55,564 nt of DNA from Neophaeotheca triangularis (Eukaryota): NCBI GenBank assembly GCA_054600435.1, contig BAAIJX010000088.1, forward strand, positions 1 through 55,564, in the 5' to 3' direction. This document shows positions 1 through 43,993 of the stretch, in pieces; the first letter of the stretch is position 1, and every line of letters begins with the position of its first letter. The notes under the pieces are model-generated. The model searched no databases. It saw nothing but the letters and a program-made list of their open reading frames with translations, and was not told the origin of the DNA. The position numbers were made by a program, and so were the translations under genes.

Positions 1-1405
1 GGGGGGGGGTAAACTGGTTTATCTTCTTTTTAAAGACCTGAGTGAATGATGTGATATGATATGATGGTACGTGTGTGGTGCGGTGTGAAAGTCATGAGTC
101 TGCTCGTCTCGAGACCGAGAGCTGCTGGTTTGGATTTTGGAGAATCGGCGACACTTTTCCTTTCGGAGCACTCCCGAGTCGATTTCACCCCCTTTTTTCC
201 CCCTTTTTTTTTCAGTCCAGTAGATCTCACTCGCCACCCTTGAGCTTCCCGCAACGACTGCAATAACACCTAGTTTGAGTCTCTCCTTTAATCCTTGTTC
301 TGCTGGTAATACCATCTATCAATCAGTTCGCCCAGACTTTCGCGCTTCCCCTTGCCCTTACCCAAGCGTCTCGAAATCGTCGTCCGTGGGTCGGGTGCAT
401 CTGCAACCTCACCACGTGCGCCGTGCGTCGCCTTCGGCATGCTGGCGGGCTACTTTGCTGAACTTCCAAAAGCGCCGTGCTAACAGGCGTCTCGAGTTGT
501 TGTACTAGTTGTCTGGCGCTCAAAAGCCAAAAGCCGGGAGCCCGCTGCTACAGAAACGCTCGTCGTGATCTTTTCTTTTTTTTACAGATCTCAGCGGCGC
601 GGCTTTCCGGCTCTCGTGGAAGTTTTGGCTCAGGTTCGGCAAGGGAGAGGGAGGCTGGGTGTTGGTCTGGCCGCTTTGGAGGCTATAAGGCCGATCTTGG
701 GAGCAGGAAGAAGACGGACCAAGTAACAGGATGGAGGCGATTTACAACCACCATAAGAGCCGACCGAGTAGCAGATCGCGAGCGAAATTGAGCTCGGAGA
801 CTAAGAGCTCGTCCGAAGACCCTCAAGCTCGAGGTTCTTGGGAAATATACCTTGGCCATTTGCCTTGGTTCGACGCCGGGATGCTAATGGAGCGGAATCA
901 GTTTGCTCCCTGGGCACCTGCTCTGTTTGTCATTGGAGATCGAGCTTGGAGGTATCAAGAGGGGTAGCAGCGTTACTTCCCACGCACGGTGTGACTCTGA
1001 AGCTACCGTCCGAATCGAGGTCTCGGCAGTCTGATTTGTGCGTTCATGTTGTTGTCGTCGATCTGTTTGTGGGTTATCTTCGTCGTGAAGGGAAAATCTG
1101 ACAGCGACAACTCAGCCACGTGCCCGTTTAGTACAATGCGGCGCTACAGCTGAGATGACCCTACAAAACTGGTCAATCTTTTTCTTTTTTCCAATTTTGG
1201 TAATTCTCGCAGAAGGCAAGCTCCCATTTTTGAAAAAATACGCCTCGATGATGACTCCACTGACTGGTCGAAACAGCACTGGGCGACTGCCTGGTTGAGA
1301 GGTGGACACGTTCTCTGTGTTACTTGTCCAATATGACCAGGAACGCTGATAGTTGTCGCGCACCCAACCTCTGAAGAGGTCTTGATCATTGGCAAGAGGT
1401 TTTAG

Positions 1406-2670
1406 CGCTAGCTAATGGACAGATGTAAGTATCCAGGCGCGCGCTTTAAGAGTCCCACTGAGTTCCACGCAGCCTAAAGCTAACCTGGCATGCCTTCTTG
1501 AAAGAGCTCTAAAGTCCTGGAATAAGCAGCGTCGCTGGTTTCTGGCCGCCGCGATACAAAAATCCGACCCTCAGCTAGCGTCAAAATCACGATGAGGTGA
1601 AGTTTAACGATTCGACCGTAGACGTGTGCGCTAGCAAAAGTACTGTATGGGCATCCGGGCGCCGCCACGAGGTCTCGAGGCCTCAGTGCTTCCTGCGAGG
1701 TTTTTGGCAGCATGGGGTGCCGTGCGTTGGAGCTCGAAGCCCTGGCTGGTGCTGCCAATGCAGTCCAGCGCCGAGATACTGGAAACCCATCCCTTTGCTA
1801 GGGCCAAATGCAGGTCACGTGGAAAGGCGATCATTAGACGCGACTATTGGCGCTAGCTTGTGGACGTATCCCGCTATCCCGGCGCCCTCGAGTGCTCCAA
1901 GGCTTGCCAATTTCAGTGCTCGCGAGTCCGACCTAGCGACCGGCTCAAGCTGCAGGTTCCCTTTGGTAGTAGGACTCGAGAGCAGCAAACCGGCGCCGCG
2001 ATGTTCGTCTCCGTCCCTCAGCTAGCGTAAGAAGGAGGTGAGCAGCAAGTGAAGCTGAACCCAGGTAATGAACGCTCCGACCTAGCATCAGCTCAAGGAT
2101 GGAGAGTGGAATCCCGGCGCTGAACCCCTCAATACTAGGACTCTTACAGTGGCTTCTTGGAATCGAAGGCAGCTTCATTGGTCTTCGCGATAGCCGGGCG
2201 CTCTCCCTCGATTGCGAAATCGCCGCCGAGATGCAAGAAACACATCCCTTAGCTAGCACCTCCGCAATCTCAAGCCTCGGGCTCTTCTCGCGCTAGCTGA
2301 GGGACGGATTCTCTTATCCCGGCGCTCATCCAGAACTTTCCGGCCTCGACGAGCTGTTCCCCGAGGTGGTTTTCTTACAGCCTCTTCAGAGCCGGCAGCC
2401 ACCTGCATTCTTCGAGACTAAGAGAGCTCGCCGCGATAGAAGAATTCGTCCATAAGCTAGCGTCGTTAAATATGGTTGGTCCAAAACATCGGAGCCAGCT
2501 CGCGCTAGTCAAGGGATGTATTGTGGTATCACGGCGCTTTCCCAGCCCCTCCTACCTGCTAAACTTTCTTGTCCCCGTCTTTTCGGAACGCGCAACGTCA
2601 GAAACCTGAGCGCCTGCGTGGTATTGAGTAGCCGCTCACCGAGATGGCATTTTTCAGCCTTCAGCTGCCC
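1406..2670. repeat. Array of six inverted-repeat units built from a degenerate 35-bp motif in alternating orientation
   Basis: Forward copies at 1406-1440, 1629-1662, 1851-1885, 2086-2120, 2291-2325 and 2503-2537. Reverse copies at 1546-1580, 1768-1803, 1993-2027, 2223-2258, 2428-2462 and 2636-2670. Example: F5 CGCTAGCTGAGGGACGGATTCTCTTATCCCGGCGC vs revcomp(R5) CGCTAGCTTATGGACGAATTCTTCTATCGCGGCGA, 28/35 identical and ungapped. Confidence 0.9.
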
Positions 2671-2966
2671 AGGTGGGCTGAGTACTCACTTGCTGAACTG
2701 CACTGTATGTATTGGTTCCAAGAGCTCTTGCACCAGCTAAAGGCTGTGTTTTCGCACGGCCGAGGGGTATCCAGCGAACGGCCGGATTCAGTGCTGGGCA
2801 GCCGTTTTGCATTGCTTCAAGGTCGTAGACTGCCTTCATTCCGCCGGGGTCACGATCCAAGTGTGGATTCATTGACCCAACTCGGTCTCAAGATCCCAAG
2901 GGGCCGATAGATATCGTTCCACCGGTCATATAGCGACGACACTACAAAGCACGCCGACCCTTTCCT

Positions 2967-4643
2967 TCAACCATCCGCAGTCTCAGCATACCAGAAATCG
3001 GCCGGCACCAGACAAGGCTCCAACTCCCCATAAGCATACAGCCCCAACATCATGCCCCCAAAAGCCATACCAACGGGCGGATCACGCGTCATGGCTTCCG
3101 TGCTCACGGAGCCAATCACCTCGCTCTCTGTCGATTGACCTTCCCCTGAAAACTCGCGGTAGTGGAACGAATAAGAGCTGTCCTGGCAACGTATCCACAG
3201 CTCGACCGGGGAATCCACTGTATCGAGTGTTTTCTCCACGACTGGACCCTCTGCTGGTCGGAAGCGCACTATTCGCTTGCTAGTGGCTGGATCAAGTCGT
3301 ATGCCGAGACTGCTGGAAGTAAAGTAATTGTAATAGACCACCACACCGGCCTCTGTTTGTGATGAGGTTGGGTGGAACGAGAGCTTTGTAGCAAAGGACA
3401 TATTCCTCTGAGTCTGTTTACGAAGCAGTGTTGTTGGCGCTGCAGGCGAGGATAGGCTGTAGGCTGAGCCGTAGAGTCGGAGCCGATCGGGTTTCTCGGG
3501 TGGGTAGAGACTGATGTCCGTGGGCTTGATTGGCGTGTTCTTCCGATACCAGCCTAGTTGTTTTTTGGTGAAATCGTCTGTCCATCTGACGTCGTGCTGT
3601 AGCTCGTGCATGCCAGGTCCTTGACCGTGGAGCTGGATCGGAGAGCCTTCATTGAAGATTGGCCAATCGTCTTGCCACTTGACGGGTAGGAGAAAAGTTT
3701 CCCTGCCAAAGACTGAACGCTCGAATGTTCCGTCAGAGGTCTTGTGAGGCCTGACGGCTAGGCAGACGGCCCACCAATCGCCGGCGGCGGTCTGAACCAA
3801 GTCGCAGTGGCCTGTGTTTTGAACGTCGTCTTTGGTCGTATTTCTCCAAAGTGGGTTCTGCGGTCCTGAGACGATCGTTGCGATCAGCGGTCGCCCTATC
3901 ACCTTGGTGTGGAGAGACATACCTAACTCATACGGCCCGAGTGGCCCTTTGTCACTCCGCAATACCCACTCGCTATGCCCGCTCTCAGTCCCTCCCTCGG
4001 CAGTAAAAAGGTAGTAGTACCTTCCGCGCTTGAAGATATGGGAGCCCTCAGAAACCCCCGAGCTCGACTCCCGCAACAAAACAGGCGAAGTGAGCGAGCT
4101 GCCAGTCTCAACATCAATCCTACTCGCGTGCACGCAAAAGTCTTTGAGCTTGCTTTCCGGCGATCGGTCTACTTTGCGGTACGTGGTCGACAAGTAGCAA
4201 GACCCGTCATCATCCCAGAACAAGTCTTGGTCGAAACCTACTTGGTCAAAATATACAGGATCGCTCCAAGATTGGTCCTTCCAGATATCCCTGGTCCGGA
4301 CGTAGAAGCCTCGCGGCCAGACTCTGTCGTCGGCTTGCGGCCTGTAGCGATCGAAAACGCAGGTCGTGATGTAAAACCAACCATCGCAATAGCGCAGAGT
4401 GGTCGCCCAGACGCCTCCACCCGGCTCGGGGGTTTTGATGTCGAGTTGGGATTTGCGCGACAAGGCGTGGCCGATGAGTTTCCATCTTATCAGGTCCCTG
4501 CTGTGGTAGATGGGGGCTCCGGGGAAGTACTCAAAGGTGGAAGTGGTTAGGTAGAAGTCTTCACCCACGCGGATGATGCTTGGGTCTGGCGAGGAGCCCG
4601 GGATAATAGGGTTTGTGTACGATCCAGTGACCTGAGTAGCCAT
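2967..4643 (-). CDS. Glycoside hydrolase family 43 beta-xylosidase/arabinofuranosidase with C-terminal beta-sandwich; probable in-frame intron 3866-3922
   Basis: NPIIPG..PDPSIIRVGEDFYLTTSTFEYFPG..IYHSRDL, WA motif, FDQDLF and EGSHIFKRGRYYYLFTAEGGT are GH43 motifs. No signal peptide. The 57-nt GTATGT...CTGAT...CAG segment has intron signals. Confidence 0.92.
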   Translation of the reverse strand: MATQVTGSYTNPIIPGSSPDPSIIRVGEDFYLTTSTFEYFPGAPIYHSRDLIRWKLIGHALSRKSQLDIKTPEPGGGVWATTLRYCDGWFYITTCVFDRYRPQADDRVWPRGFYVRTRDIWKDQSWSDPVYFDQVGFDQDLFWDDDGSCYLSTTYRKVDRSPESKLKDFCVHASRIDVETGSSLTSPVLLRESSSGVSEGSHIFKRGRYYYLFTAEGGTESGHSEWVLRSDKGPLGPYELGMSLHTKVIGRPLIATIVSGPQNPLWRNTTKDDVQNTGHCDLVQTAAGDWWAVCLAVRPHKTSDGTFERSVFGRETFLLPVKWQDDWPIFNEGSPIQLHGQGPGMHELQHDVRWTDDFTKKQLGWYRKNTPIKPTDISLYPPEKPDRLRLYGSAYSLSSPAAPTTLLRKQTQRNMSFATKLSFHPTSSQTEAGVVVYYNYFTSSSLGIRLDPATSKRIVRFRPAEGPVVEKTLDTVDSPVELWIRCQDSSYSFHYREFSGEGQSTESEVIGSVSTEAMTRDPPVGMAFGGMMLGLYAYGELEPCLVPADFWYAETADG

Positions 4644-5476
4644 GGCTGAAGAGAGACGAAAATTGAACGGCTTGCGGACACAAGTTCATTCCAAGAACAA
4701 TTGAAACACACTTACTTTTTCTATTCTACAGCTTTAGATTGCCTCGAGAGCGCCGAGCTGAAGATATAGTTTTCGCGGCGATAGATTGTGTAATTGGAGA
4801 CGGAAGAACTTGTTGCGTGTGCGAAGAAGGAATCGGGACGACTCCACCCGAGCAAGCGACTCCTCCTCCCCCGACGACACGACCTGACCTGCGCTCATAT
4901 ACTATCACAAAGATACAAAGCGCAATACCGACCCTTGGTAATTCACGAACAGTGTTTTGTTCCGGGATGATGGTAAGAATATGTAAAGAATAGCCAATGT
5001 CCCACAGGAACTGCCATATTGAGAAAGAGATTGGATGGCCAATGCTCGTCCTTGCCACCTCTTCAACCACAGGACTACACTCATTGCTCATCTCCTGATG
5101 GAGGGGTCTAATGCATTGACCGCGACCAAAATCTGAGAGGCAGGGAACGAGTATGGGAATCTGATTTGAATGAGATGGAGGTGGTGGTCGATTGAATGGA
5201 GCTTATTTTGTTATTAGTCGAGCGATGGCGCTTCGTGTTTTTGGTCAAAGAAACAAGGCCGAATCGTTAACTGAGTGATCTGTAGAAAATTGCACCTCTA
5301 TCTTGTCTGTATGAAAAAGCGATATTGGTATCATGCGCAGCAAAATGTAAAAGCGCCGGAGCTATGCATGGAAACACCTCCACAAGCAACGCCCATACCC
5401 TCCCGTGCTTTCTCACAACCACCATGAACCTCTCAGCATTCCGCACCCTCACGCGCCGCCCCTTACGAGTGCCCCC

Positions 5477-8400
5477 TCAGAGCACATCTGCAACATTCGC
5501 CTGCACAATCTCACTCTTCTGGCTCTTATTCCTGCCAACCTGATAATACACATCGGCAAAATCATTGCACTGCATCTGCTTCAAGAAATCCTCATCGTGA
5601 GTGATGACCAGCAACTGAAAATTCTTCTGCTGGCGACGCAACTTGATAATGTCGGAAAGCGACTGCGCCAGAGCGCGGATGTTGTCCTTGTCGAGATTCG
5701 TAGTCGGCTCGTCGAGAGCAATGAGACCGCAATTGACGCCGAAACACTCGGCCAGAGCCAAGCGGATGATGATGCAGGCGAGTACTTTTTGGCCCGCCGA
5801 GCAGCGGCCGCGCATGTCCATTTCCGCGTCCTGCTTCACCATGCACACGCGGTAGTTGTAGTTTTTGTTGGCTTTTGTGGTTTCCGACTCGCTGCGGATG
5901 ATGATGGTGTCGACGTCGGTGCCTTGGTAGGTTTTGCGCCAGAGCTCTTCGATGATGCGGTTGATTTCCTCCATTTTGAGGGAGTGGTACTTCATAATTG
6001 CTTTGTCAAGGGCGCCGCCGTAGCGGCCCAGGTCATCGATGCAGGCTTTGGTCGTTTCCACCTTGACGTGGGCTTCTTTGTAGCGGCGCGCAGAGTCCTT
6101 GTAGTCCTTGTCCCATTCCTCCATCTTGGACATGAGCTGGCGATCAAGGGCGCCACCTTCGCCTGCGAGCTTAGACTGGTCGGCGGAGAGTTTGTTGCGC
6201 TCCGTTTGGAGACGCTGACCTTCGCGTTCGTAGCGGGCGTGGTCCGCTTCCGCGTCGTGGCTCTCGAGTTCTTCAATCTCTTGCCGAACGGCTTGAAGCG
6301 CGGCGAGGTCACGTCGAAAGCGCAGGTTGTCTTGGATGCTACGCTTGGTGTCGCCCACGTTGCGCAGCTTCTCCTGGTATTGCTTCACCTCACGACTGAT
6401 CTTGCCCATCTCCTCCTCGATCCCTGAGAGTTCGTTCTTGAGCTCCTCCAGTGCGTTCCTGCCTTGCTCCAGCTGTTGAGGGCCATCACGCTCGATGTAA
6501 GACTTCACCTCTTGGTCGGCCATCTTCAGCTGGTTTAGACTAGTATTGATCTGACTGGTCTCGGCTTGGAGCTCGCGATCTTTCTCGTCGCCGCGACGAG
6601 AGATGTCCTCGTATTTCGTTTGAGCTTGAGCGAGTTGAGAGGCGAAGCCTTGCAGCTCCTGATCCGCTGACTTGACCAGTTGTCGCTGTTCGTCGCTGTA
6701 GCCTTTGACCTCTTCAATCTGGGTCTCGAGAGAAGTGCGCTCTTTGAGCTGGTAGACGGCGGTGTCGAGCTTGCCCCTGATATCTCTGACCTCGAGCTCC
6801 ATGGAGTTGATCTGGGTTCTAGAGCGGTCGCGCTCGCCTGTGGCCTTGTTCGACTGGCCCCTCCAAGTCTTGATTTGGTCGGCGGTCTTCCGAATCTCGT
6901 CTTGAATCTGCTCAAGCCCACGCGAGCTGCCCGCTTGCTTCTGCTTCTGAGCGAGGTCTTGAATCTGAGCTTCATATTTTGTGATTTCGCTGCTGTGTTT
7001 CACGATGCTTTGGACAGTGCGGGAGATCGATTCGACATCGCGCTTAATGGCTTTGCGCTCGTTGATGTCTGCCTCTTGGTCTTCGAGTTGGCGGTCAAGC
7101 TCGGCTTTGCGACTAGACAATTCCGCGTCTTCCTTCTTGAGTTTGGGTATCTCCTTCTCCTTGAGACGTTCCCACGTGTCAAACTGCGAGTTGACAAGAC
7201 TTGCAGACTTGAATTGCGAATTGGCCTCATCAATATTTGAACTGGCCTTCTTCTCGTCCCACTTGTCCAGCTGCTTCTGGATTTCCATCTTGAAATCCTT
7301 CGTTGCAGCAGCGTTCTTCAGGCCCCGTTTACAGGTCATACATGCTTGGTTGTCATCGGCGGCTTTCATGCAGTCGGTGAAGTATTTCCTCATGGCAGAG
7401 GCATACTCCAAGTTGGCGCTTAAGATGTCGCGAGCTTCCTCCAGCTCTGCTACAGTCTCGTGATATTCTTCGGGAGGGCATCCCGCGCCATCTTGAATTT
7501 TCTGGGCCGCGGACTTCAGTGAGCGCTCTTTAGCTTCAAGCTCGGCGCGACAGGTCTTGAGCTTGTAGTGCGTTTGCTCGTCTTCCCTGCTGGTACCGTC
7601 CATTTGCTTCTCTGCATCGCGGACGGACGCTGTGCTGTCATCGACAGCTCTCTGGAACTTATTCTCGAGTGTCTCGGGTTGCCATTCGCCAACGACTTTG
7701 CTGAGCTGATCGCCGTGAGCGCCCTGCATCGTCTCCAACTTCAGCTGCCTGTCTTTGAGCTCCTGCTGGAGGTAGTCGAGCTGAGCCGAGTCGCCGGCAC
7801 GCTTGGTTGCTTCGATGAGCTCGCTGTCCAGTATTTCCTTTTGTTCTTCAAGCGAACGGATCTCAGCTTCGCTGGCGGAGATTTTGGCATCCCATTCAGC
7901 CTTCCCTGCTTCTCCCTTGGCGTTGTTGAGTCGAGCACCGACCTCTTTGGCCTTCGCCTCAAGGCTGACCCTACCGCCTTCATCCATCTCAATCTGGTTG
8001 AGGCTGTTCTGCAAGTTGCCGATCTTACGATCGTTATTCGTGATTGTCTGACGGGCGTTCTCCTTGCGTTGCGTGGAAGCAGACTTCTTCTCGTTGATTT
8101 GAGTCAGGACGTTCTGTGCGCCTTGCAGCTCTTCTTGAGTCTCGCGCCGGGCCCGCTCAAATGCTGCGTTCTGCTCCTTGGCCATCTTCGTAATTCGCTC
8201 GATGAAAGAGCCAACTTGCTTGTCGTCCACGTCCGAGTCGTACCCTCTAATGCCATGCCTGCGAGCAGTCTCCTTGACGAGCTTCTCCCGGTTGGCGACT
8301 TGACGTTCGTAGCTCGCCTGCTCGGCTTCGTGTGAGCCACATTCACGCTCTTTGGCGTTGATGCGCGACTTGGCTGAGTTAGCGCTTGATTGCAAGTCTT

Positions 8401-9382
8401 GCCAATCGCTCGTGTGCTGCTTGACGCTCCGCTCGTAGACGCTGACTCGCTCCTCGTACTGCTCAAGCATCGATGCCAGCTGTTCGTCAGACTCTTCCAT
8501 CTCTTCGAGGTGCTCGCGGAGGCTCTGGACACTTTCCTCCTTGGTCTGCCGTTGAATGCGCTTGCCGTTGAGCTCACCAACAATCTTGCCGGTGCTGGCA
8601 GCTTGCGCAAAGGCTTCCTCACAATGGCGGGCGACGTTCTTCATGCTCTCCGTGACCTTATCCTTCTCCTTACCTTTTTGCTCGATCAAGGCCTCGAGCT
8701 GGATGATCTCATCGTGGACCCTTTCGCCCCTCGCTTTGTCGGTTTTGTAATGCTCTTCGTCCTTCTTCAAGCTGATGAGGGAATTGTTCTGGGCCTTCCT
8801 CAACTCATTAATATTTGTGATAGCGCTGGTGTACTTGACGGCTTCGAAGATGTCGTCAAACTTGTCCTTGAGTTTGCTTCCGGCATTCAAGGGCCAGAGA
8901 CTGTCTTCCTGGTGGCAAAAAACGACATTTTCGAGGACTGCTTTACTGACGCCCAGATATTTTGGCATGACGGAGTTGAGTTCGGCCACGCGAGAGGATA
9001 GGGTGACTTTCTCTCCGTTTTTACGCATCACTAGCGAGCCTTCCAACATCTTCTGCGAACGAGTTTGCTTCTTGGCTGTGAGCTGCATGCTGCGAGTGAC
9101 GACCATGCTGGCTCCATCGACGCTGGTGAATTGCAGCTTCACCTGGGCTAGGACTTCCTTTTCGCCGCAGAGCTTGGGGTCGTGGATGAAAGCGCCCCCC
9201 GTTTTGCTCATGTCCGGAAGAGAGCCTGTGGTGGCGAACTTGAGACATTCGATGATGGTAGTTTTGCCAGAGCCGTTCAACCCGACGATAAGAGTGAGAG
9301 GGGTGTGAAATTGGATAGTTTCGGCACGCTGGTTGTCAAAAGACCGGACGCCCAGGATGGAGAGTTGCTTAATAGCAGACAT
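5477..9382 (-). CDS. RAD50: DNA repair protein Rad50 (MRN/MRX complex)
   Basis: Walker A GLNGSGKTT, Q-loop FCHQED, long coiled coils, zinc-hook CMTC, signature MRGRCSAGQK, Walker B/D-loop LDEPTTNLD, H-loop ITHD; single 1301-aa ORF. Confidence 0.98.
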   Translation of the reverse strand: MSAIKQLSILGVRSFDNQRAETIQFHTPLTLIVGLNGSGKTTIIECLKFATTGSLPDMSKTGGAFIHDPKLCGEKEVLAQVKLQFTSVDGASMVVTRSMQLTAKKQTRSQKMLEGSLVMRKNGEKVTLSSRVAELNSVMPKYLGVSKAVLENVVFCHQEDSLWPLNAGSKLKDKFDDIFEAVKYTSAITNINELRKAQNNSLISLKKDEEHYKTDKARGERVHDEIIQLEALIEQKGKEKDKVTESMKNVARHCEEAFAQAASTGKIVGELNGKRIQRQTKEESVQSLREHLEEMEESDEQLASMLEQYEERVSVYERSVKQHTSDWQDLQSSANSAKSRINAKERECGSHEAEQASYERQVANREKLVKETARRHGIRGYDSDVDDKQVGSFIERITKMAKEQNAAFERARRETQEELQGAQNVLTQINEKKSASTQRKENARQTITNNDRKIGNLQNSLNQIEMDEGGRVSLEAKAKEVGARLNNAKGEAGKAEWDAKISASEAEIRSLEEQKEILDSELIEATKRAGDSAQLDYLQQELKDRQLKLETMQGAHGDQLSKVVGEWQPETLENKFQRAVDDSTASVRDAEKQMDGTSREDEQTHYKLKTCRAELEAKERSLKSAAQKIQDGAGCPPEEYHETVAELEEARDILSANLEYASAMRKYFTDCMKAADDNQACMTCKRGLKNAAATKDFKMEIQKQLDKWDEKKASSNIDEANSQFKSASLVNSQFDTWERLKEKEIPKLKKEDAELSSRKAELDRQLEDQEADINERKAIKRDVESISRTVQSIVKHSSEITKYEAQIQDLAQKQKQAGSSRGLEQIQDEIRKTADQIKTWRGQSNKATGERDRSRTQINSMELEVRDIRGKLDTAVYQLKERTSLETQIEEVKGYSDEQRQLVKSADQELQGFASQLAQAQTKYEDISRRGDEKDRELQAETSQINTSLNQLKMADQEVKSYIERDGPQQLEQGRNALEELKNELSGIEEEMGKISREVKQYQEKLRNVGDTKRSIQDNLRFRRDLAALQAVRQEIEELESHDAEADHARYEREGQRLQTERNKLSADQSKLAGEGGALDRQLMSKMEEWDKDYKDSARRYKEAHVKVETTKACIDDLGRYGGALDKAIMKYHSLKMEEINRIIEELWRKTYQGTDVDTIIIRSESETTKANKNYNYRVCMVKQDAEMDMRGRCSAGQKVLACIIIRLALAECFGVNCGLIALDEPTTNLDKDNIRALAQSLSDIIKLRRQQKNFQLLVITHDEDFLKQMQCNDFADVYYQVGRNKSQKSEIVQANVADVL

Positions 9383-10017: not shown

Positions 10018-11702
10018 ATGTCCCTGTACAATTCGGGAAACGGCCTTCCTCAGAATGGCCTCCCGTCACCGCAGAACAATAACGTGGGTCCTCAGTCTTC
10101 TTCCTGTACCACGACGCAGCCATCGTCGACACTAACGAATCCCCACTCTAGGCTCAGATGGCCGGACCGACAGAGATGGGAGGCATGTTGGACCAGAACG
10201 GCAACGTCATGAACGGCATATCGGGCCTCGATATGGACATGAGCCTTCCCATGGACCTTGACCTCGACTTGACACAGGCAGACCCGCAGACCTTCACGCC
10301 CATGACCCAGAACCAATCACGGGACCAAAGCATGGCGACGGTGACATCAGCCAACAACAACGGCAATTATGGCATGCAACAGCAGCAGCAACAGCAGGTC
10401 GAGGCGCAAATGACGGGCGCCGGCGCAGGACCTCTACCTACGGGGTTCGGTATGAGTGCGCAAGGCAATACCAGCACCCTGACAGAATTCACGAAACGGA
10501 GGAATTGGTCGCAAAGGATCATAGAAGAGCTCAAGGACTTTCTACACATTCTGACTCCGGACGGGAGGATCCTGTACGTCTCGCCGTCCTGCCGGGGTAT
10601 CACAGGGTACGAGCCTCAGTCTCTCATAGGAAAATTCATTGGCGAGTACGTGCATCCGGACGATAGCGGCATCTTCATGCGCGAGTTCAACGAATCGATA
10701 GCATCGGGTAATAGTTTGCGCTTCTTCTACCGCTTCAAAAAGGACGACGGAACATATATGATCTTCGAATGTGATGGACACCCACACATATCACCAGAGA
10801 CGCAAGGGCAAGGTTTCGGGCCATCGCAGCAAAATGGAATGGCAGTGGCAGGAATATGTAGAGGCTTTTTCATGATGGCGCGACCCTATCCCACCAAAAA
10901 CGCCGCTCTTCTAGACTCTTTCCTCGAACACAAAATAGAAAATGAGCGTCTTATGAAACGCATCGACGAGCTGAAACGCGAAGAAATCGAGGAAACCGCC
11001 GAAGCCGACCGGCTCTACCGCGAACAAATCTCCCAAGGTAACAATAACCAAAACGCCTCCGAATCTCCCACCACCGGCCAGCGCCCCTCGGCCGACACCA
11101 CAAGCGATAACACCACCGGCGAAACCCCCAATTACCAAGGCATGCCTCCGCCCGCCAAACCCTCCGTCTCCAACACCCTGCTCACTCGGCAAAACCTCGA
11201 CTCTGCCCTCTCGGGCCAAAAAACCGACAGCATCGCGGACAAAATGTCGCGCTACGAAGCCTCTTCCACCCATCTCGAAAGCATCGAACTGCTAACAGGG
11301 CTACGCTACCGCGACGGCGAGCGCAGCCACGGTATCAGCACAGGCGACACCTCACCCGCCCTCATCCGCGGCGACGCCGGCATAGCAATCCTGCTCGACC
11401 GCGACCGCGAAAACAGCAAAAAGGAGAAGAAGAAGCTCAAAGTCGCCGATGAGTACGTGTGCGCAGATTGCGGGACGCTGGACTCGCCTGAATGGCGTAA
11501 GGGGCCAAAAGGGCCAAAGACGCTTTGTAATGCTTGCGGGCTAAGGTGGGCGAAGAAGGAGAAGAAGCGGACGGGCGATGATGGGAAGCCCAATGGTGGT
11601 AGCCCTGGGAGCATGGGCCCGCAGATGGGGAGTGTGCCTGGCTTGACGCTTAGCGGGCAGCCGCCGGGGTTGATGCATAATGCTAGTACTGGAAGTAGTT
11701 GA
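10018..11702 (+). CDS. wc-2: White Collar-2 / LreB PAS-GATA transcription factor; exons 10018-10083 and 10152-11702
   Basis: [33 protein letters not shown] domain, [28 protein letters not shown] finger [32 protein letters not shown]. Intron GTGGGT..CTAAC..TAG keeps frame. Confidence 0.95.
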
Positions 11703-19212: not shown

Positions 19213-20851
19213 TTCCAGCGGATGGAGTGAGTGGATTTCTTTTGGCGAATATCTTGACTAAAAAGAGGATGTAGCGCCTGCAGATTCTGCGCCTTTCAGC
19301 AAAGCAGAGACTCCGCGGACACGCAGTGGCAGAACAACACGTTCGAAATGAGAGGCGAGGCGTTTATGGTTTACGAGACTAGGGGGCTGGCGAATCGGAT
19401 GAGATACCCACAGCTGCTGCAAATCAAGTTTTTCAGTATGTCGTTTAGAATGGCAAATCCCATTTGGACCTTGAGCGATCCTACCCTCTTCGATACTGTA
19501 TTGCTTGTATCGATGATACCTCGCTCCTTTCCCCACTGATAGTCAAGCGATGGCGCTCAACAAGGTGGTCAGCGACCGAGCTGCCAAGTCACCGCCAAAA
19601 CACGAGCAACAAGCGAACGAGCATGCTATGAGTATCTCCTCTGAGCGAGCGAGCTACCTGTTTCCGCTGAGACTTGCGACGAGCATACCTCTTGCTTGTT
19701 GTTCGCTCGTCCGTTGACCGCTGGCGCTCAATGCCTGCTTGCACTTCGACATCGCTTTTCGTTGGTGCGCGAGACCTAGCGATAGATGGTGCAGTGGACA
19801 CTTCTCTACTCGGGTCTGTGTTGAAGTGATTGGTCTGGTAGGGCCCATTTGCGAACATGTCTACATACTAATCTAATCCTGAACAATATTACGACTGCTA
19901 GACCGTAAATAGAGGTCTGGAGGTAGACGGTCAGCAGCTTACAACCAAATCTTACGCCGGCGCGCTTGTTCTGGACAGACCCTCCACACGGAACCTTCAC
20001 ACAGATATGACACCTCGCCTTCGCTATCGGCCTTGGATCCAGAAATGGGTATATAGCAGGGTGAGGTCGGCGAGAAAGAGAGGTTGCATCCGAGATGTTG
20101 CTATTTGCATCTCACGCTTAGCCTGATCAGGCTAGCTTGCTTGCTCTTTTTCGCGGCAAGGCTGACAACGTCCCATCAAACCTTCAGCTGAGGTACCAAC
20201 GTCAAAAGTACATGATTGTACAATGTACCTATACCCGACTAATTACATGTGACGACCACGTGGACGCCGACTCTAGTCTTCGGCGACACCGCATTCGTCG
20301 GTCTACAATTCCCGCAAGGGAAACCATGCGGAACGCACGAGGCTACGAGTTTTTGAAAGACACCCATGGGATCTACCCATGGCACACCCGTGACACGGCC
20401 CAACGCCAGATGGCAAGGTCGCTGAAAATATCACAGAGAAATTATTCATCACCTGTCAACTTTAGCTTTGAGGCGCAGACGATCAGCAGCGTACTCGTAT
20501 GTTTCGCGGGACAGGCAAAGAATATTTCTGTCTTGGAGAGGTACCATGGATTCCTTCGTGAGCGCAGCGAACCACGCTCTTGCGAACCTCGATCAGAGAA
20601 CCACGTTCGTGTCATCCTGGCGCATCGTAGCATCGTAGAAACTTGAAGGTGTATGGTTGTGGGTATATGAAGGCGCAAGCATCCTGTCTCCTGTCACATC
20701 TCCCCTTCTATCCAGCATCAACGTCTTCCTTACTGTCTTTGCTTTAATATCACACTCGCTTCGACAGTCACCGTCGCTTGGCTTCACTCATCTGTCTCTC
20801 CAAAATCTCATCGATATCTCTGGGTTTGTCAAGCACCGATACAGCAATAGA

Positions 20852-22831
20852 ATGTACAGCACCCTTTCCTTCTTCGCCATCCTTGGCACGGCCTCGGCTT
20901 TGTCTGGTTATTCGGACACGCCTCCAGCATACCCAACTGGCTACGTCTCCAGCAGTACGACTTCGACGCTGGAGCCCCACCTGCCACCGTCTTACGTTCA
21001 GAGCAGCTCACCCATTGAGAGCCTGGAGGTTTACCCCACCACGACGAATTCTGAATCGACGCCCCCAGTGTACCCAACTGGCTACGCTTCGAGCAGCACG
21101 TCTTCAGCGCCTGAGCCGTACTTGCCACCTCCCTATGGTCAGAGCAGCTCGTTGACTAGGAGCATTGAGACTCATTCGACGACCACGTCGACTCTGGAGC
21201 CGTACTTGCCTCCGATTTACGGCCAAAGCAGCTCGTCCACCGAGAGCATTGAGACGTACCCTGCTACAACGTCCACTCTTGAGCCGTACTTGCCTCCATC
21301 CTACGGTCAGGACAGCTCGTTTACGGACAGCATCAAGACTTATTCAGTCACCACGAACTCCGCATCGATGCCTCCAGTTTACCCAGGACAGGCCAGCTCG
21401 TCAACTGAGAGCATCAAGACGTACCCTCTCACAACGAGCTCCGATGTCAAGAACCCTGTCTACCCGACTGGCTACGTGAGTCACAGCTCTGAGTCTTTGA
21501 CGAGCTCCACTCAAAACATAACGAGCCACCCAACGGCGTACACGCAAACCTCTTCCATTTCGTCCGCCCTCACTTCCAGCAGCCATGAGAGCCCTTCCAG
21601 GAGCGCATCTGCAAACAGTACTACCGGCAGTCCTACGAACAGCTACTCCATTCCGCCAGTCTATACAACGATCACCACTACCTCGCCATGCCCTGTCACC
21701 CACACGTCTGGCACTAAGACTTGGACCGACACTACGACCAGCACTCTGACTATCACTTCTTGCAAGAGTGGTTGCAGTGGTCATGAATATTCCACCAGCT
21801 CATACGCCAACGGCACTACTGTCCACCCAACTACCACCGAGTCGATCCCACCAGTCTACACCACCATTACCACTACCTCTCCCTGCCCTGTCACCCATAC
21901 CTCTGGCGATAAAACTTGGACCGATACCACAACTAGCATAATCACCCTCACCTCATGCAAGAGCGGATGCGGTGATAATGAATACCCTCAGACTTCCACC
22001 AAGTCCCACGGTACTGGGATCTCGCCTCCCAAGTATACTACTTTCACTACTACGACCATCTGCCCTATTACCACTACTACTGGTCAGTCGACATATACTA
22101 CGGAGACCACTAGCACGGTTACGGTCACGTCTTGCACAGCTGGCTGCAACAGTCATCCTACCGGATATACCATCAAGTCCAGCGACCACAGCAAGCCGCC
22201 TGTCGAAACGCCAACGACTCACTACATCCCAGGTTCGACCACCAGGGTCATCACCTACACTACTGTCCACCCTACGACGTCGACCAAGACAAAGTTTGTC
22301 CCTTGCAGCAGCGCTGTCGGCACCAGCAGTGGCACGACCTACTACTCGACCTCTTTGACCACGACTCGCATCCCTATTACCTACATGACTACCGAGACGA
22401 TTAGCTACGTTGCCTACCCTAGCCACAAGCCGACCGACAACCCCCACCTAAGTGACTACCCCGGAAACCACGTGGTTCCCTCCAAGGAGCCCATCAGCTA
22501 CGTCCACCCAGAACAAGCCACCTCAACTCAAGCCCACCCCATCGAAGGCACCTGCCCGCCTAAGGAGACGACTACCATCTACAAAGACGGACCCTGCCCC
22601 ACTCAAGCAACATTGACAATTTTCTCCGTCTCCACCGTCTACGGCGGCATGCACCCCCCACCTTCCAACAAGGCGACCGACTCCGCTGACACAACGCCAA
22701 CTACCTCGAACAAGAGACTCCCACCCTACCCTACCAAGAGCTCTGGCGGTCATGAGGGCTCTTCAGTCTATCCTACCGGCTCCGGCGCTCCTCACTACGG
22801 TCCCTGGACCACCAAGTCGTCGCTGTCGTAG
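20852..22831 (+). CDS. Secreted Ser/Thr/Pro-rich repeat protein (putative cell-wall mannoprotein or adhesin-like)
   Basis: Signal peptide MYSTLSFFAILGTASALS, tandem EPYLPPxYGQSSS repeats, and three Cys-containing YTT..CP..TSC..GC repeats. Confidence 0.8.
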   Translation: MYSTLSFFAILGTASALSGYSDTPPAYPTGYVSSSTTSTLEPHLPPSYVQSSSPIESLEVYPTTTNSESTPPVYPTGYASSSTSSAPEPYLPPPYGQSSSLTRSIETHSTTTSTLEPYLPPIYGQSSSSTESIETYPATTSTLEPYLPPSYGQDSSFTDSIKTYSVTTNSASMPPVYPGQASSSTESIKTYPLTTSSDVKNPVYPTGYVSHSSESLTSSTQNITSHPTAYTQTSSISSALTSSSHESPSRSASANSTTGSPTNSYSIPPVYTTITTTSPCPVTHTSGTKTWTDTTTSTLTITSCKSGCSGHEYSTSSYANGTTVHPTTTESIPPVYTTITTTSPCPVTHTSGDKTWTDTTTSIITLTSCKSGCGDNEYPQTSTKSHGTGISPPKYTTFTTTTICPITTTTGQSTYTTETTSTVTVTSCTAGCNSHPTGYTIKSSDHSKPPVETPTTHYIPGSTTRVITYTTVHPTTSTKTKFVPCSSAVGTSSGTTYYSTSLTTTRIPITYMTTETISYVAYPSHKPTDNPHLSDYPGNHVVPSKEPISYVHPEQATSTQAHPIEGTCPPKETTTIYKDGPCPTQATLTIFSVSTVYGGMHPPPSNKATDSADTTPTTSNKRLPPYPTKSSGGHEGSSVYPTGSGAPHYGPWTTKSSLS

Positions 22832-26847: not shown

Positions 26848-29293
26848 ATGGCTCCCATTTCCATACCAGAGACCGGCATATCGCTTCACGCAGCGGGCGG
26901 AAATGCTCAAGATGCTGGCAAGCATGCAGGCAAGTCGGCTATACTGCTGCGGCTGAACGATGCGTTGGTGGAGGACATGAGAGTGGCGGCTCAGAACAAG
27001 AGACTCCACTTTGACGCTGGCAAGGCTCCAGTATGTCGATCCCGGGGCATGGTCCCGCCGCGGACGTTCTCTCGGTTGGAGCTAACATTCTCGCTCTCTG
27101 TAGAAACTCAGGCTTGGCACCAAGACCATTGACCTCGATCTGTCCCCCGATGCTTTCAGGCACGAGCTCTACACTGCCAGCTCGCTGACCGATTTCGCTT
27201 TCGATGCCCTCATTACCCACCGAGCTCGAGTCAAGTCGGCAGAGAAGGAGGACAAGGGCACAGCGGGTGCGGATGCCGCGTTGGCGAGTCTAAAAAATAA
27301 CCTTGCTTCGTTCGCTCAGGAGAAGCAGGCAAACTCAACAGCTATTTCCAATTCGGTACAGGCCACGCCGAAAAATCGTTATGAAGCTGCTAGGACGCAG
27401 AAGCAGACGAGCCGTTCGCTGCTTAGTGGGACACAGAGCGGTGGGAGAAGCCCCTCTGCAGGTGGAGTGGGAACTCCTAGAGGACTTGCGCCGACTTCAC
27501 AGCCTGTGAGTGAAGACCAGGCGAAGTTGAAGGCCATGCGGGTTGCGGTGATTCATCTCCTGGCCATGAAGCCGGCTACGCTCGAGGACATTTCCAGCAA
27601 GACACGCATTCGTAAGGAAGAAATGGAGAACGTTTTGCGCAAGGTTGGGCAGGAAAGAGATGGAAAGTGGGAGTTGGTGAATCGATCGTACAAAGAGTTG
27701 GATGTTTGGAGCTGCAAGTATCTTTCGCAGGAGGACAGGCAGGCGGCTATTGACAACGCCATCAAGGCATTTGACAGGCTTCGGCTGGGAAAGGAGGACA
27801 AGGTGTGGCAGTTGCTTCTGCCAGCGGAGGAGAGAGGGAAGGGTAAGGTCTTGTCGAAACTCCACCTCGGTGCTTCACAGTCCGCGGCCGGAAACTTCAC
27901 TCCTGGAATTGGATCCAGCCCTCAGGCCACTGCTCAAGGTAGTCAGCCTGGAAGCTCAGCTGGCACGCCTCAGCTTGGTGCCGCTTCAAAGACAGCCGCG
28001 GCTAAGAAGAGCTCGGACATTACGAAGCGGTTACTGTCCAAAGACCCGAAGAAGGCTCGAGAGCAGGAAGAGGCCAAGATGAAGAAGAGAAAGGAGCGCG
28101 ATGCGACGGCTAGTGACGTCGAAGGTAAGAAGGCGGCGAGAAGGGAGACGGCGACTGTCAAAGGTCCGCCTGCAAAGAAGATCAAATCGGCGGAGATTGT
28201 TCACAGCTCAGAGGACGAGGATGAAGAGGCTGGTGAGGTGAAGGAGAAGAAGACAAGCCCCTCAAAATCCGCAGCTAAACCTGCCGCCACGAAGACGACG
28301 AAAACGAAGTCATCTTCATCTGATAGTAGCGATGTGCCAGTGAAGCAAGCAAAGGCCGTCGAAAGACCGCCGGTGACGAAGAAGCGAGATGCTCCTGCCG
28401 CCAAACCGGAGGCTTCACCCGCAACAAAACCCGCCAAGCCCGCTCCCGTCCCCGCCGGCAAGACAACACCCCGTACAAACGGCCTCTCTGCACCTTCAAA
28501 CAAGAGTCGACCTGGACTCAGTCCGCAGAAACCAGACAGCAGACCTCATGTGCCTTCACCACTAGGAGCCGCTCGCCCACGAAACGCTTCCGACGTTTCC
28601 GACCGCAGCGCCATTGGCGTTCAGAGGACGAAACATGGCGGTGGAGACAAGGGCACGCCGAAAGGGCTCGGTATATCCCACGGTGGCGTCAGGAAGAGGC
28701 AAGATACAGTCACGAGTGCGACTTCATCCTCCTCCAGTGGCCCCGAACAGCGAAGTACCACCGAAAGCTCACAAGACAAGGCACGCAAAGCTACAAAACC
28801 TTCTGGCACGAGCGACACTCCTCCCACCAAACCGTCAACTTCCAAATCAGACGGCGACCGCGTAGCCAAACGCAAACGCGCCGACGAAAATACCCGCGAA
28901 GACGACACCGCCATCCATCAATCCGAAAGCAAAAAGCACCGCAAGACCGACTCGGCCTCATCGCAAGGCCAAGATGACAGCTCATCGTCGACAGCAACAG
29001 GCTCAAGCACGGCCAAGACCTCCCCCGAAGTCGTCTTCGACAGCGGCAGCAGCGACGCCGCCAACTCCTCTTCCGCAGAGAACGCTATGTCCTTCAGGCA
29101 GGCTGTCAGCGTCGCCCAAAATTTCAAGGCTTATTACCCCAGCTACTCGGAGTTGTGGGAGAAGCTGGCGGCTATACAGGCAAAGGGGGAGGAATTGCCC
29201 AAGGCTGAGGTGGAGCGTTTGTGGGTTATGCAGAATCGGCTTGCTGAGATGAAGAGGGATATTCAGGAGGCATCGAGGGTAGGTGGTGGGTGA
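26848..29293 (+). CDS. Putative RNA polymerase II elongation factor ELL-like protein; exons 26848-27030 and 27104-29293
   Basis: Intron GTATGT..GCTAAC..TAG joins the ORFs in frame. Winged-helix-like block AVIHLLAMKP..YKELDVW..YLSQEDRQAAIDNAIKAFDRLRL, long K/S-rich linker, and occludin/ELL-like C-terminus FKAYYPSYSELWEKL..LWVMQNRLAEMKRDI. Confidence 0.72.
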
Positions 29294-42501: not shown

Positions 42502-43993
42502 ATGGACGCCATCTTCGCCGACTTTACCAGAGCCCACGTCTACCAATCCGCCTCTGATGGAGGAGATGGGCAACTCCTGGCAAGTACAATCACCCCAGAC
42601 GCGCCCAAAAACGATCCAGGCCGGCTTTACCATTTCTATCGCTCGACGAATCCTCATATGGTGCCCCACGAGCTGGAATACCGCATCAAGTTCAACTCGA
42701 AACTGCCTCTTGACCCCGATCAGCAGCGCTGTTGGATCGACACCTTCACCACCTACCACACCTTCGTCGGAGAGCTTCTACTCGCCGAAGAAGCGCAGAA
42801 TGCCGCTGCCAACCGTGTACGCGACGAGTGGGGACGAGTGTACGCTGCGTGGAAGAAGGTCGTCAACTCTATCTACAAGGGCTACCAAACGGGTTGTTAC
42901 GAGGCGTGGACCATACCCTGCCTTTATGTCGTCGTCCGTTACCTGCGCATCTTTGCCACCAAAGCCGATGAGAGCGCCGACGCGCAAAAAGACAGCGGCG
43001 TTAGCCTCACCGGAATGGTAGAGGACGAGGAAGTAGGCACAGAAGGCAAGAACACAAATCTCAAAGACGCGGCCAACCAAATCCAGCGCGTCTTTGGACT
43101 CTGCGCAAACGACAGGTCCGTGTCTCGTTTCCCTCCCAACTCACGCTTCCTTTCCCCAACCAAAGCTAAAGGTAGGTACTGCCAGATCCCCCATCGAGGA
43201 CTCTCGCAAATGGGCCCTCTACAACATAACCAACGCCCTTTTCCGCACCTACTCCCGCCTCAACTCCGTCTCCCTCTCCAAAAACATCCTCAAATCCCTC
43301 CGCGCCCTCTCCGACCTCCCCGACATCTCCCTCTTCCCAGCCTCCCACCGCGTCACCTTCCATTTCTACGTCGGCCGCATCCATTTCCTCGAAGAAGACT
43401 ACGCCCAAGCCACCGAGCACCTTTCCTCGGCCTTCGCGCTCTGCCCGGCCTCCCACACCCGCAACGCCCAGCGCATCCTCACTTACCTAATCCCGACCAA
43501 ACTCGTCGCACACCACAAGCTCCCCTCCCCTGCCCTCCTAGCCCCCTACCCACACCTCGAAGCACTTTTCGCGCCCTTCCGGCCCGCCGTCAAAACCGCC
43601 AACCTCGCCGCCTTCGACGCCGCCCTCGAAGCCGGCGAAGCCTCCTTCATCAGAACACGCACTCACTTGACCCTCGAGCGCGCCCGCGACATCGTCGTTC
43701 GCAACGTCCTGCGCAAAGTCTTCCTCGCTGCCGGTTATGAAGACCCGAAACCCGATGCCCCGCCCGACACACCCCGTGTCCGGAAAACCCGCATCGAAAT
43801 TAAAGCTTTTGCGCAGGCTCTGGCGGACAGCGGCGCCGAAATCGGGGATGGTCAGGGTGGTTTCGATACCGATGAGGTCGAATGCTTGATTGCGAACTTG
43901 ATTTACAAGGATCTGCTCAAGGGGTACATTGCCCATGAAGCCGGGAAAGTGGTTTTGAACAAGAAAGGCGCGTTCCCTGGAACGGGTGTCTGA
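42502..43993 (+). CDS. CSN12: PCI-domain protein, Csn12/PCID2 family; exons 42502-43115 and 43186-43993
   Basis: WTIPCLYVVVRYLRIFA, CANDR|SPIEDSRKW, LFRTYSRLNSVSLSKNILKSL, VTFHFYVGRIHFLEEDY, ILTYLIP, DEVECLIANLIYKDLLKGYIAH..VVLNKKGAFPG. Confidence 0.85.

Follow-up and report, generated by a model that had tools for sequence, protein, structure and literature searches.

The window analysed here comprises 55,564 nucleotides (positions 1 to 55,564) of contig BAAIJX010000088.1 from Neophaeotheca triangularis. It represents an ordinary gene-dense core region, in which Pfam searches with 20 long ORFs detected housekeeping genes only. No transposase, recombinase or cas genes were found among these ORFs. 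Within a region of about 3 kb without genes, which has GH43 and RAD50 genes as neighbours, positions 1406-2765 (1.4 kb) carry about 13 copies of a bipartite motif of 35-36 nt. The copies alternate strictly in orientation and form six inverted-repeat units and one additional forward copy (Table 1). Eleven copies are unambiguous; R6 and F7, the copies nearest a GH43 gene, are decayed and were counted as probable by register. The units are separated by 48, 47, 58, 32 and 40 bp, with a further 60 bp preceding F7, and successive forward copies start 223, 222, 235, 205, 212 and 228 bp apart. The centres of the two motifs in an inverted pair lie about 140 bp from each other. These results bear out the original prediction of a regular alternating array in a window lacking cas, recombinase and transposase genes; the coordinates, lengths and spacers of its six units were all reproduced, and its decayed seventh forward copy, noted at about 2731-2762, was placed at 2731-2765.

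Table 1. Positions of the array, its units, motif copies and interiors, and of a possible relic, in the window
Feature	Position	Strand	Description
Whole array	1406-2765		13 alternating motif copies, six units and an extra forward copy
Unit 1	1406-1580		175 bp, type A
Motif F1	1406-1440	+	Type A (GGAC); PWM 39.6 bits; nhmmer E 6.7e-7
Interior 1	1441-1545		105 bp, unique
Motif R1	1546-1580	-	Type A; PWM 44.2 bits
Unit 2	1629-1803		175 bp, type B
Motif F2	1629-1662	+	Type B; PWM 31.7 bits, lowest among the 11 robust copies
Interior 2	1663-1767		105 bp, unique
Motif R2	1768-1803	-	Type B: AAGGGATG, centre +1 nt, ATCT; PWM 41.5 bits
Unit 3	1851-2027		177 bp, type A
Motif F3	1851-1885	+	Type A; PWM 40.3 bits
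Interior 3	1886-1992		107 bp, unique
Motif R3	1993-2027	-	Type A; PWM 42.1 bits
Unit 4	2086-2258		173 bp, type B
Motif F4	2086-2120	+	Type B; PWM 32.6 bits
Interior 4	2121-2222		102 bp, unique
Motif R4	2223-2258	-	Type B; PWM 40.6 bits
Unit 5	2291-2462		172 bp, type A
Motif F5	2291-2325	+	Type A; nearest consensus; PWM 46.8 bits; nhmmer E 1e-8
Interior 5	2326-2427		102 bp, unique
Motif R5	2428-2462	-	Type A; PWM 41.9 bits
Unit 6	2503-2670		168 bp, type B
Motif F6	2503-2537	+	Type B; PWM 41.0 bits
Interior 6	2538-2635		98 bp, unique
Motif R6 (decayed)	2636-2670	-	PWM 10.6 bits, outside training set; in register
Motif F7 (decayed)	2731-2765	+	PWM 12.4 bits, outside training set; in register
Possible isolated relic unit	116-250		Lead only, not significant; F-like 116-151 (+), R-like about 212-250 (-)

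The motif consists of a "15-nt half" (gCGCTAGCTnAgGGAyG), about 10 variable T-rich nucleotides and a 10-nt half (ATCnCGGCGC), with approximately two helical turns between the halves. Pairwise identity among the 11 good copies is 87% in the 21 core columns, 42% in the 9 centre columns and 32% in the 12 flank columns. A loose pattern (GCTAGC N20-34 CGGCG) gave seven matches at six sites, every one within the array. Shuffled sequences gave a mean of 0.73 matches, and seven were reached in 0 of 100, so the array beats the shuffled controls against which it had been proposed to be checked. A PWM trained on the 11 copies, with R6 and F7 excluded, scored these copies at 31.7-46.8 bits; the best match elsewhere (about 54 kb, both strands) reached 15.4 bits. 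Since R6 and F7 score below this background value, their assignment relies on register and expected orientation. When the 13 copies were used to train an nhmmer profile, they were recovered at E 1e-8 to 3.5e-4 and the next match had E 3.4; training and test copies being identical, this result is circular. We calculate that 13 sites would alternate strictly by chance about once in 4096 cases. Neither PWM nor nhmmer searches detected further copies in the remaining ~54 kb of the window. Neither half-site was convincingly found again in the rest of the 55 kb, which gives no indication of a wider regulon. Searches for relic copies in 1-1405 gave nothing significant (8.2 bits, E 0.041-5.8, nhmmer E 3.4). 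The 8.2-bit match belongs to the possible relic at 116-250, where a stretch of 24 nt (223-246) shows 83% complementarity to F4 (E 0.041); neither of its two sites was recovered by the nhmmer profile.

The sequence is supported by an independent contig (X1, possibly the source sample), which spans positions 5-3400 with zero differences. Structure could be compared between two strains only, from contigs; pieces from two further runs (242 nt and 151 nt, depth ~2) were excluded from the evidence. The second sample or strain (X2) is collinear with the window across unit 1, R2-S2-F3 and 2139-2952, and has neither joints nor inversions there. It carries a 4-nt insertion in the conserved 5' half of R3 (behind 2021), which, together with the decay of R6 and F7, indicates that individual copies are dispensable. 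Among the 40 of its 182 differences that were listed, a weak depletion of core SNPs was observed: 2 of 28 SNPs in the array fall at core positions (5.6 expected, binomial P 0.06), and one of the two turns R4 to the consensus base.

Alternating orientation is a hallmark of multiple-inversion systems, and we take the motif, an imperfect palindrome with conserved ends and a variable centre, to resemble attC. The copies could thus be recognition sites of a site-specific recombinase that inverts or excises short segments, as in a shufflon or an integron, and recombinase cassettes had been put forward in the original prediction. The collinearity of the second strain weakens this proposal. Moreover, no recombinase gene is present in the 55 kb, the segments are non-coding and too short for cargo, and the motif is without the internal dyad typical of tyrosine or serine recombinase core sites. 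We give this explanation only a very slight chance.

The interiors are mutually unrelated. Ungapped end-anchored identities were 0.252 (+) and 0.261 (-), against 0.264 and 0.247 in shifted controls, and 132 local alignments compared with shuffles gave a mean z of 0.2, with no interior-interior pair above z 2.7. The view first formed by eye, that the motif and its spacing persist amid otherwise unrelated sequence, is thereby upheld as a description, and the significant alignment among interiors that would have marked an old degenerate satellite was not found. Tandem Repeats Finder reported no array in 1406-2765, and k-mer enrichment in interiors and spacers revealed nothing notable. A satellite or other head-to-tail tandem repeat was rejected on these grounds: interior identity (0.25) equals that of the controls, and only the motifs recur, with a period of 205-235 bp. 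Young copies would share interiors, so mere recency of the copies is disfavoured. Interior length is nearly constant, against a range of 32 to 60 bp for the spacers; it differs by up to 9 bp between units, so helical phasing is not strictly maintained. A CRISPR array was likewise rejected, since the repeats alternate in orientation and the window is eukaryotic and lacks cas genes.

The array might still be an old functionless tandem repeat whose cores were kept alike by short-tract gene conversion or mutational bias. Decay is strongest in the end copies, as would be expected if the array had been homogenised from its middle. The core SNP depletion in the second strain is marginal among the 40 of 182 differences listed, and one core is disrupted in that strain. 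Conversion would, however, have to be confined to blocks of 15 and 10 nt, sparing the 10-nt centre and all interiors, and the constancy of interior length would be left unexplained. A signature of RIP was also not detected: GC content of the array (0.535-0.547) is like that of adjacent DNA, (CpA+TpG)/(ApC+GpT) is 1.30, and TpA/ApT is 1.02, the latter raised by 13 CTAG in the array. With neither AT enrichment nor CpA/TpG depletion, a RIP-mutated repeat was rejected. A functionless repeat is in our opinion very unlikely.

Odd and even units carry distinct arm variants, an (A-B)x3 pattern that is absent from the original prediction. Every arm of units 1, 3 and 5 has C at column 20, where five of the six arms of units 2, 4 and 6 have T. 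R2 and R4 have a 1-nt insertion in common and are 85% identical (repeat family D4). In column 35, F1-F5 have C, whereas the six R copies read G,T,G,T,G,T, which gives the six units a common polarity. Uniform polarity and A/B alternation favour tandem duplication over independent insertions. The pattern suggests an old array of tandem origin in which apparently only motifs and interior length were retained: a two-unit block of about 445 bp (type A plus type B) may have been triplicated long ago, with subsequent drift to randomness everywhere but in the motif cores and the length of the interiors. If the array arose by tandem duplication, the conservation of the arms needs to be explained in place.

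The size of the units (168-177 bp), the 35-nt inverted ends and the two-module end sequence all fall within the usual range of MITEs. Alternatively, the units could be decayed non-autonomous DNA transposons, clustered and MITE-like, whose arms would be terminal inverted repeats and transposase-binding sites; they would have no present host function. Inverted arms of 35 nt were found at all six units, decay affects the terminal copies, and the second strain has one disrupted copy. Tandem MITE arrays are also known, from the coral CMITEs (PMC2872659, available text). Against this origin, target-site duplications were absent at all six units, the outward flanks of which share just a preceding G, and there is no additional copy in the other ~54 kb and no transposase gene in the window. 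Uniform polarity and the A-B-A-B-A-B order disfavour independent insertions. Interiors and subterminal flanks are unrelated, unlike those of the coral arrays as described in the same text (PMC2872659). Given an ancient duplication, neutral relics would be expected to lose the arm cores as well. We regard decayed MITEs as unlikely; if the array were such a cluster, it would be a curiosity showing how far interiors can diverge while ends persist.

A multi-hairpin RNA precursor had also been considered in the original prediction. The arms of every unit are able to pair, and units 3 and 5 fold better than shuffles (z -2.5 to -4.9). The other four units fold no better than shuffles (z +0.23 to -1.32), and neither do the interiors alone (12 folds, z +1.67 to -1.48). 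Arm identity is 0.655 within units vs 0.648 between units, so complementarity is not unit-specific, and column 35 is constantly mismatched. What is conserved in the arms is their sequence and not just their ability to pair. The hairpin proposal is weak in the light of these results. In a related scheme, each inverted pair would frame a unique insert of about 100 nt, transcribed either from both arms convergently or into a hairpin precursor with paired arms, in an architecture like that of the Trypanosoma brucei minicircle gRNA cassettes, where inverted repeats surround a unique interior of constant length and several cassettes lie in a row. A fixed-distance initiation signal was not seen: inward of the arms, 0 of 55 columns reach 0.7 bits (13 sequences). 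No Rfam family was identified either. A search over 1-6000 at E <=1 returned only a chance mir-2300 match (E 0.41, 22.6 bits vs a gathering score of 90). We consider an array of small-RNA cassettes distinctly unlikely.

No coding signal was detected in the array, in which the best Pfam match of 20 stop-to-stop frames of at least 45 aa had an E-value of 0.053 (none at E <0.05). A 142-aa ORF over units 2-3 gave 36 candidates and no homologue at E <=0.01. A protein-coding repeat pseudogene, the finding of which would have spoken against the original prediction, was rejected on this basis. The 5' half of the motif presumably resembles a tRNA acceptor end and A box; ARAGORN predicted 0 tRNAs, and a tRNA-derived origin was rejected as both ARAGORN and Rfam were negative. 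A telomerase RNA gene was rejected because neither CCCTAA nor TTAGGG occurs within 1-3000. We know of no XlnR-type or other transcription-factor site that fits the motif near the GH43 gene. Beyond the window, motif pattern scans yielded 42 loci (27 in metagenome contigs, 15 in prokaryote genomes and 0 in viral contigs), all of them single matches, none with a second copy of at least 12 bits in register. The best of these, at 39 bits, was regarded as chance; it is located upstream of a bacterial dihydrolipoamide-dehydrogenase-like ORF. A literature search, with subscription journals largely outside its scope, found no description of such an array; the motif letters turned up in primers only.

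Of the explanations considered, we tentatively favour an array of bipartite protein-binding sites that would be maintained in situ, perhaps from former transposon ends. Identity falls blockwise, from 87% in the cores to 42% in the centre, 32% in the flanks and 25% in the interiors, and interior length stays near constant though interior sequences are saturated. The array may be a cis-acting DNA element in which a sequence-specific DNA-binding protein would recognise a series of bipartite sites that selection would hold in place as inverted pairs; the case for long-term conservation draws solely on comparison within the array. The binder could be a multi-domain protein (paired-like, Myb or multi-zinc-finger). 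Since the arms match transposon terminal inverted repeats in size and in their two-module layout, it may also be transposase-derived. The element might serve as a regulatory, boundary or architectural module of the ~3-kb gene-free region. Part of the original prediction stands here: a bipartite protein-binding array is still the best reading, while its more specific suggestions of nucleosome-sized units and of a centromere or origin are unsupported in an ordinary gene-dense core region.

A broader proposal, to which we assign a low probability, is that the array exemplifies an undescribed nuclear element of filamentous fungi, made of a row of cassettes that are framed by inverted repeats and held in place by selection. 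Such an element might act as a sequence-defined chromatin or architectural module with its own dedicated reader protein, perhaps derived from a transposase, or it might be a nuclear counterpart of kinetoplastid gRNA cassettes, with every unique insert of ~100 nt giving rise to a small RNA. If selection keeps the motifs, the array would be a non-coding element, compact and defined by its sequence, within the core region of a fungal chromosome, with a reader protein or an RNA output to be found. It could then offer a handle on fungal chromatin organisation, the domestication of transposon ends or a new type of small-RNA gene.

Several known systems share parts of this architecture. The CENP-B box of alpha satellite is a protein-binding box within a satellite whose monomers stay alignable. 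The array resembles such satellites in its tandem arrangement, its higher-order two-unit period and the preferential retention of a short box; unlike them, it has interiors at random identity, is negative with Tandem Repeats Finder and consists of six units rather than kilobases to megabases. The MATE/AMA1 elements of Aspergillus nidulans, genomic repeats of ~6 kb with target-site duplications, contain clustered CTAG-centred Spe-motifs (RWCTAGWY). They are likewise non-coding fungal elements with many clustered, CTAG-based short motifs, but the Spe-motif does not fit the GCTAGC found here. Bacterial BIMEs are clusters of REP sequences in alternating orientation. In these prokaryotic elements, which are dispersed in hundreds of copies, every REP forms a hairpin of its own, and the short linkers are conserved. 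Strict alternation of ~35-nt motifs, alternation of two variants and an extragenic location are common to BIMEs and the present array; in contrast, the motif described here forms no convincing hairpin, the linkers (32-107 bp) are unique, and a single locus was seen. BIMEs are named in the available text of PMC3184786.

MITEs and CMITEs are also units of <200 bp with terminal inverted repeats of ~35 nt and are capable of tandem arrangement (PMC2872659, available text). Within coral CMITE arrays, both the elements and the intervening DNA are highly similar (PMC2872659, available text), whereas the present array lacks target-site duplications and shared interiors, and neither dispersed copies nor a transposase were found in the 55 kb. 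The gRNA genes of T. brucei lie in cassettes of ~140 bp (about 142 nt) with imperfect 18-bp inverted repeats and unique contents, several per minicircle; one third of the cassettes have no identifiable gene, and the initiation region lies 30-32 nt from the forward repeat (PMC9202587, available text). These mitochondrial cassettes have an AT-rich sequence, 18-bp repeats and a defined initiation region (PMC9202587, available text), while the array lies in nuclear fungal DNA and has 35-nt bipartite arms and no inward positional signal. The two are nevertheless alike in their overall plan: a row of unique interiors framed by inverted repeats, with near-constant length (~142 nt vs 168-177 bp here) and short variable gaps separating the cassettes (PMC9202587, available text).

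Thirteen copies of a 35-36 nt motif were found at 1406-2765 in strict strand alternation, designated F1-F7 (forward) and R1-R6 (reverse). The consensus consists of g-CGCTAGCT-n-A-g-GGA-y-G, about 10 variable T-rich nucleotides, and ATC-n-CGGCG-C. The six F-R pairs form inverted-repeat units of 175, 175, 177, 173, 172, and 168 bp, followed by gaps of 48, 47, 58, 32, 40, and 60 bp; the figures given for units and gaps in the original prediction were obtained again. Among the 11 good copies, pairwise identity was 87% in the 21 conserved core columns, 42% in the nine centre columns, and 32% in the flanks. Outward of the arms (the two motif copies of a unit), the sole conserved base is the first one, the G preceding CGCTAGC; inward, no conserved columns were detected within 55 nt.

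Positions of the motif copies and of nearby genes along the forward strand of the window
Feature	Position	Strand	Remark
Forward motif copies (F1-F7)	starts 1406, 1629, 1851, 2086, 2291, 2503, 2731	+	
Reverse motif copies (R1-R6)	1546-1580, 1768-1803, 1993-2027, 2223-2258, 2428-2462, 2636-2670	-	
GH43 beta-xylosidase gene	2967-4643	-	ends ~200 bp from array
RAD50	5477-9382	-	best solved relative 7zr1_C, E 2e-269; two further chains named RAD50
GATA zinc-finger/PAS protein, white-collar-2 type	10158-11702	+	beside RAD50
Nsp1, GCN5-type acetyltransferase, Rad1, others			also beyond the GH43 gene

The array is genuine, with solid statistical support, and matches none of the families tested. A loose motif pattern gave seven matches at six sites, every one inside the array; shuffled controls, which the motif beats, averaged 0.73 matches, and 0 of 100 reached seven. 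The 11 copies used to build a PWM scored 31.7-46.8 bits, while the top score in the other ~54 kb, both strands, was 15.4 bits. The end copies R6 and F7, outside the training set, scored 10.6 and 12.4 bits, under the best background match, and are counted as copies only on the strength of their register and expected orientation. An nhmmer profile recovered the 13 copies at E 1e-8 to 3.5e-4 and the next match at E 3.4, a circular result because these same copies had served to train the profile. No convincing recurrence of either half-site was seen elsewhere in the window, and the array was not detected by Tandem Repeats Finder. An artefact of assembly is ruled out: sequencing run X1, possibly the source sample, has a contig that spans 5-3400 with zero differences, and X2, a second sample of the same organism, is collinear with the window.

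Two alternating unit types, absent from the original prediction, were recognized. At column 20, units 1, 3, and 5 (type A) carry C in both arms, whereas five of the six arms in units 2, 4, and 6 (type B) carry T, as does F7. R2 and R4 have a 1-nt insertion in common and are 85% identical. At column 35, F1-F5 all carry C, and the bases in R1-R6 are, in order, G, T, G, T, G, T. From these patterns it follows that all units have the same polarity and that the array is (A-B)x3 with a period of ~445 bp. This order is consistent with a two-unit block having been duplicated in tandem, not with six independent insertions. No target-site duplications were found at the units.

Tandem duplication, to which the uniform polarity, A-B alternation, and regular period point, implies that the interiors (the DNA between the arms) were once alike. 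They are now unrelated to one another, as had been noticed by eye: 132 local alignments on both strands gave a mean z of 0.2 against shuffles, with no interior-interior pair above 2.7, and ungapped end-anchored identity was 0.252 and 0.261 versus 0.264 and 0.247 in shifted controls. No k-mer stood out in interiors and spacers. Interior lengths in units 1-6 are 105, 105, 107, 102, 102, and 98 bp. Identity is now random while length is kept within 9 bp and two short arm blocks remain 87% identical, a combination that cannot arise by neutral decay; nor can it arise by selection during past transposition, which affects only copies produced at other sites. A neutral MITE-like relic cluster is considered unlikely. 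The arms may be former transposon ends. A selection-free repeat, with copies kept alike by short-tract conversion, is a very unlikely source of the arm similarity. The most economical reading would be in-place constraint on both motif blocks and on the spacing of the two arms within a pair. Recognition by protein is favoured since the arms are conserved as sequence, not complementarity, and the interiors lack a fold or signal. The arms might be recognized as double-stranded DNA by a putative protein with two DNA-binding modules, to which we give somewhat less than an even chance; the probability left over by this reading and all its rivals, those discussed below included, goes to something not considered.

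The multi-hairpin non-coding RNA of the original prediction was not convincing. Whole units 3 and 5 folded better than dinucleotide shuffles (z -2.5 to -4.9), the other four did not (z +0.23 to -1.32), nor did the interiors alone (z +1.67 to -1.48), and arm identity within a unit (0.655) was close to that between units (0.648), showing no unit-specific likeness. Small-RNA cassettes, by analogy with the T. brucei minicircle cassettes bounded by 18-bp inverted repeats (PMC9202587, available text), seem quite unlikely. The only Rfam match, to mir-2300, is attributed to chance (E 0.41; 22.6 bits versus a gathering score of 90), no tRNAs were found, and a telomerase RNA gene was ruled out as the identity of the array. 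A coding array was likewise rejected: none of 20 stop-to-stop frames of at least 45 aa had a Pfam match better than E 0.053, with no sign of the repeat-protein pseudogene considered earlier, and no homologues were found of a 142-aa ORF over units 2-3. RIP mutation was also discarded; the GC content equals that of neighbouring DNA, CpA/TpG is not depleted, and the 13 CTAG that the array contains account for the TpA/ApT value of 1.02. Recombination sites, another function offered initially, are highly improbable; no transposase or recombinase genes were found in the window, as originally reported.

Divergence of X2 in the array (1.6-7.7% among the contigs listed) was similar to that of the upstream non-coding DNA (3.3-5.6%). 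The 40 of 182 X2 differences listed include 28 SNPs in the array: 2 in the core (273 positions; 5.6 expected, P 0.06, a weak test), 3 in non-core motif positions, and 23 outside motifs. One core SNP turns R4 to the consensus base in X2, and a 4-nt insertion is present within the conserved half of R3. Two further insertions, of 29 nt at 2765 (directly after F7) and of 12 nt at 2859, fall within the 200 bp that separate the array from the GH43 stop codon. Several stretches within 1-3400 are represented in X2 by two contig versions, which at 1698-1943 show 4 differences and 19 differences with 4 gap letters, respectively, pointing to two haplotypes or two strains within that sample. In exact-pattern scans of public collections, 27 loci were found in metagenomes and 15 in prokaryotes, each with a single match, and 0 in viruses. 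No second copy in register was present at the metagenome and prokaryote loci, and the best locus (L002) is a solitary site located upstream of a bacterial gene.

At 116-250, 1.16 kb upstream of the array, lies what may be a stand-alone decayed unit, not significant on its own. It comprises an F-like site (116-151, 8.2 bits) and an R-like site (~212-250, with 83% complementarity to F4 over 223-246, E 0.041), with a low-complexity C/T-rich run (183-215) between them. The stretches 469-485, 594-616, and 867-883 resemble the CGGCGC half together with a few bases on its interior side in F6, R3, and F4 (half-site PWM 11.3-12.5 bits; blastn E 0.11-2.1); they may represent earlier relics or chance similarity.

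The window comes from a fungal core region that is dense in genes. RAD50 and the white-collar-2-type gene are presumably also neighbours in Neurospora crassa, which would mark a conserved syntenic core. No long ORFs were found in the 1405 bp left of the array; an ATG-started small ORF of ~79 aa was noted by eye at 731-970, amid listed ORFs 477-791 and 838-1101 in ORF-poor surroundings. Four long ORFs (412-735 aa) without a Pfam match at E 1e-5 lie at 20657-22831, 27281-29293, 35356-37563, and 42502-43740. The window starts with a nine-G run (1-9); the X1 contig ends at position 5, and X2 extends leftward past the window start with unrelated or diverged letters, which leaves the left neighbour of the gene-free region out of view.

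We rate the array as a repeat array whose conserved boxes would bind protein, or as a cis element derived from transposon ends; that it represents a wholly novel kind of element in fungal nuclei is unlikely. In a literature collection with few subscription journals, no fungal array of this kind was found described. BIME/REP arrays have alternating orientation and two alternating motif variants, both in common with the array described here, but are bacterial hairpin elements. Satellites with a conserved protein box likewise have a higher-order period; alignable monomers are retained only in the satellites. Tandem arrays of MITEs exist, and in the available text of the source their elements and gaps are alike, unlike those found here (PMC2872659). 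Although kinetoplastid gRNA cassettes are, in the text available, mitochondrial and equipped with a defined initiation region that the array lacks, they are the nearest architectural match, with inverted repeats, a unique interior, constant length, and several cassettes in a row.
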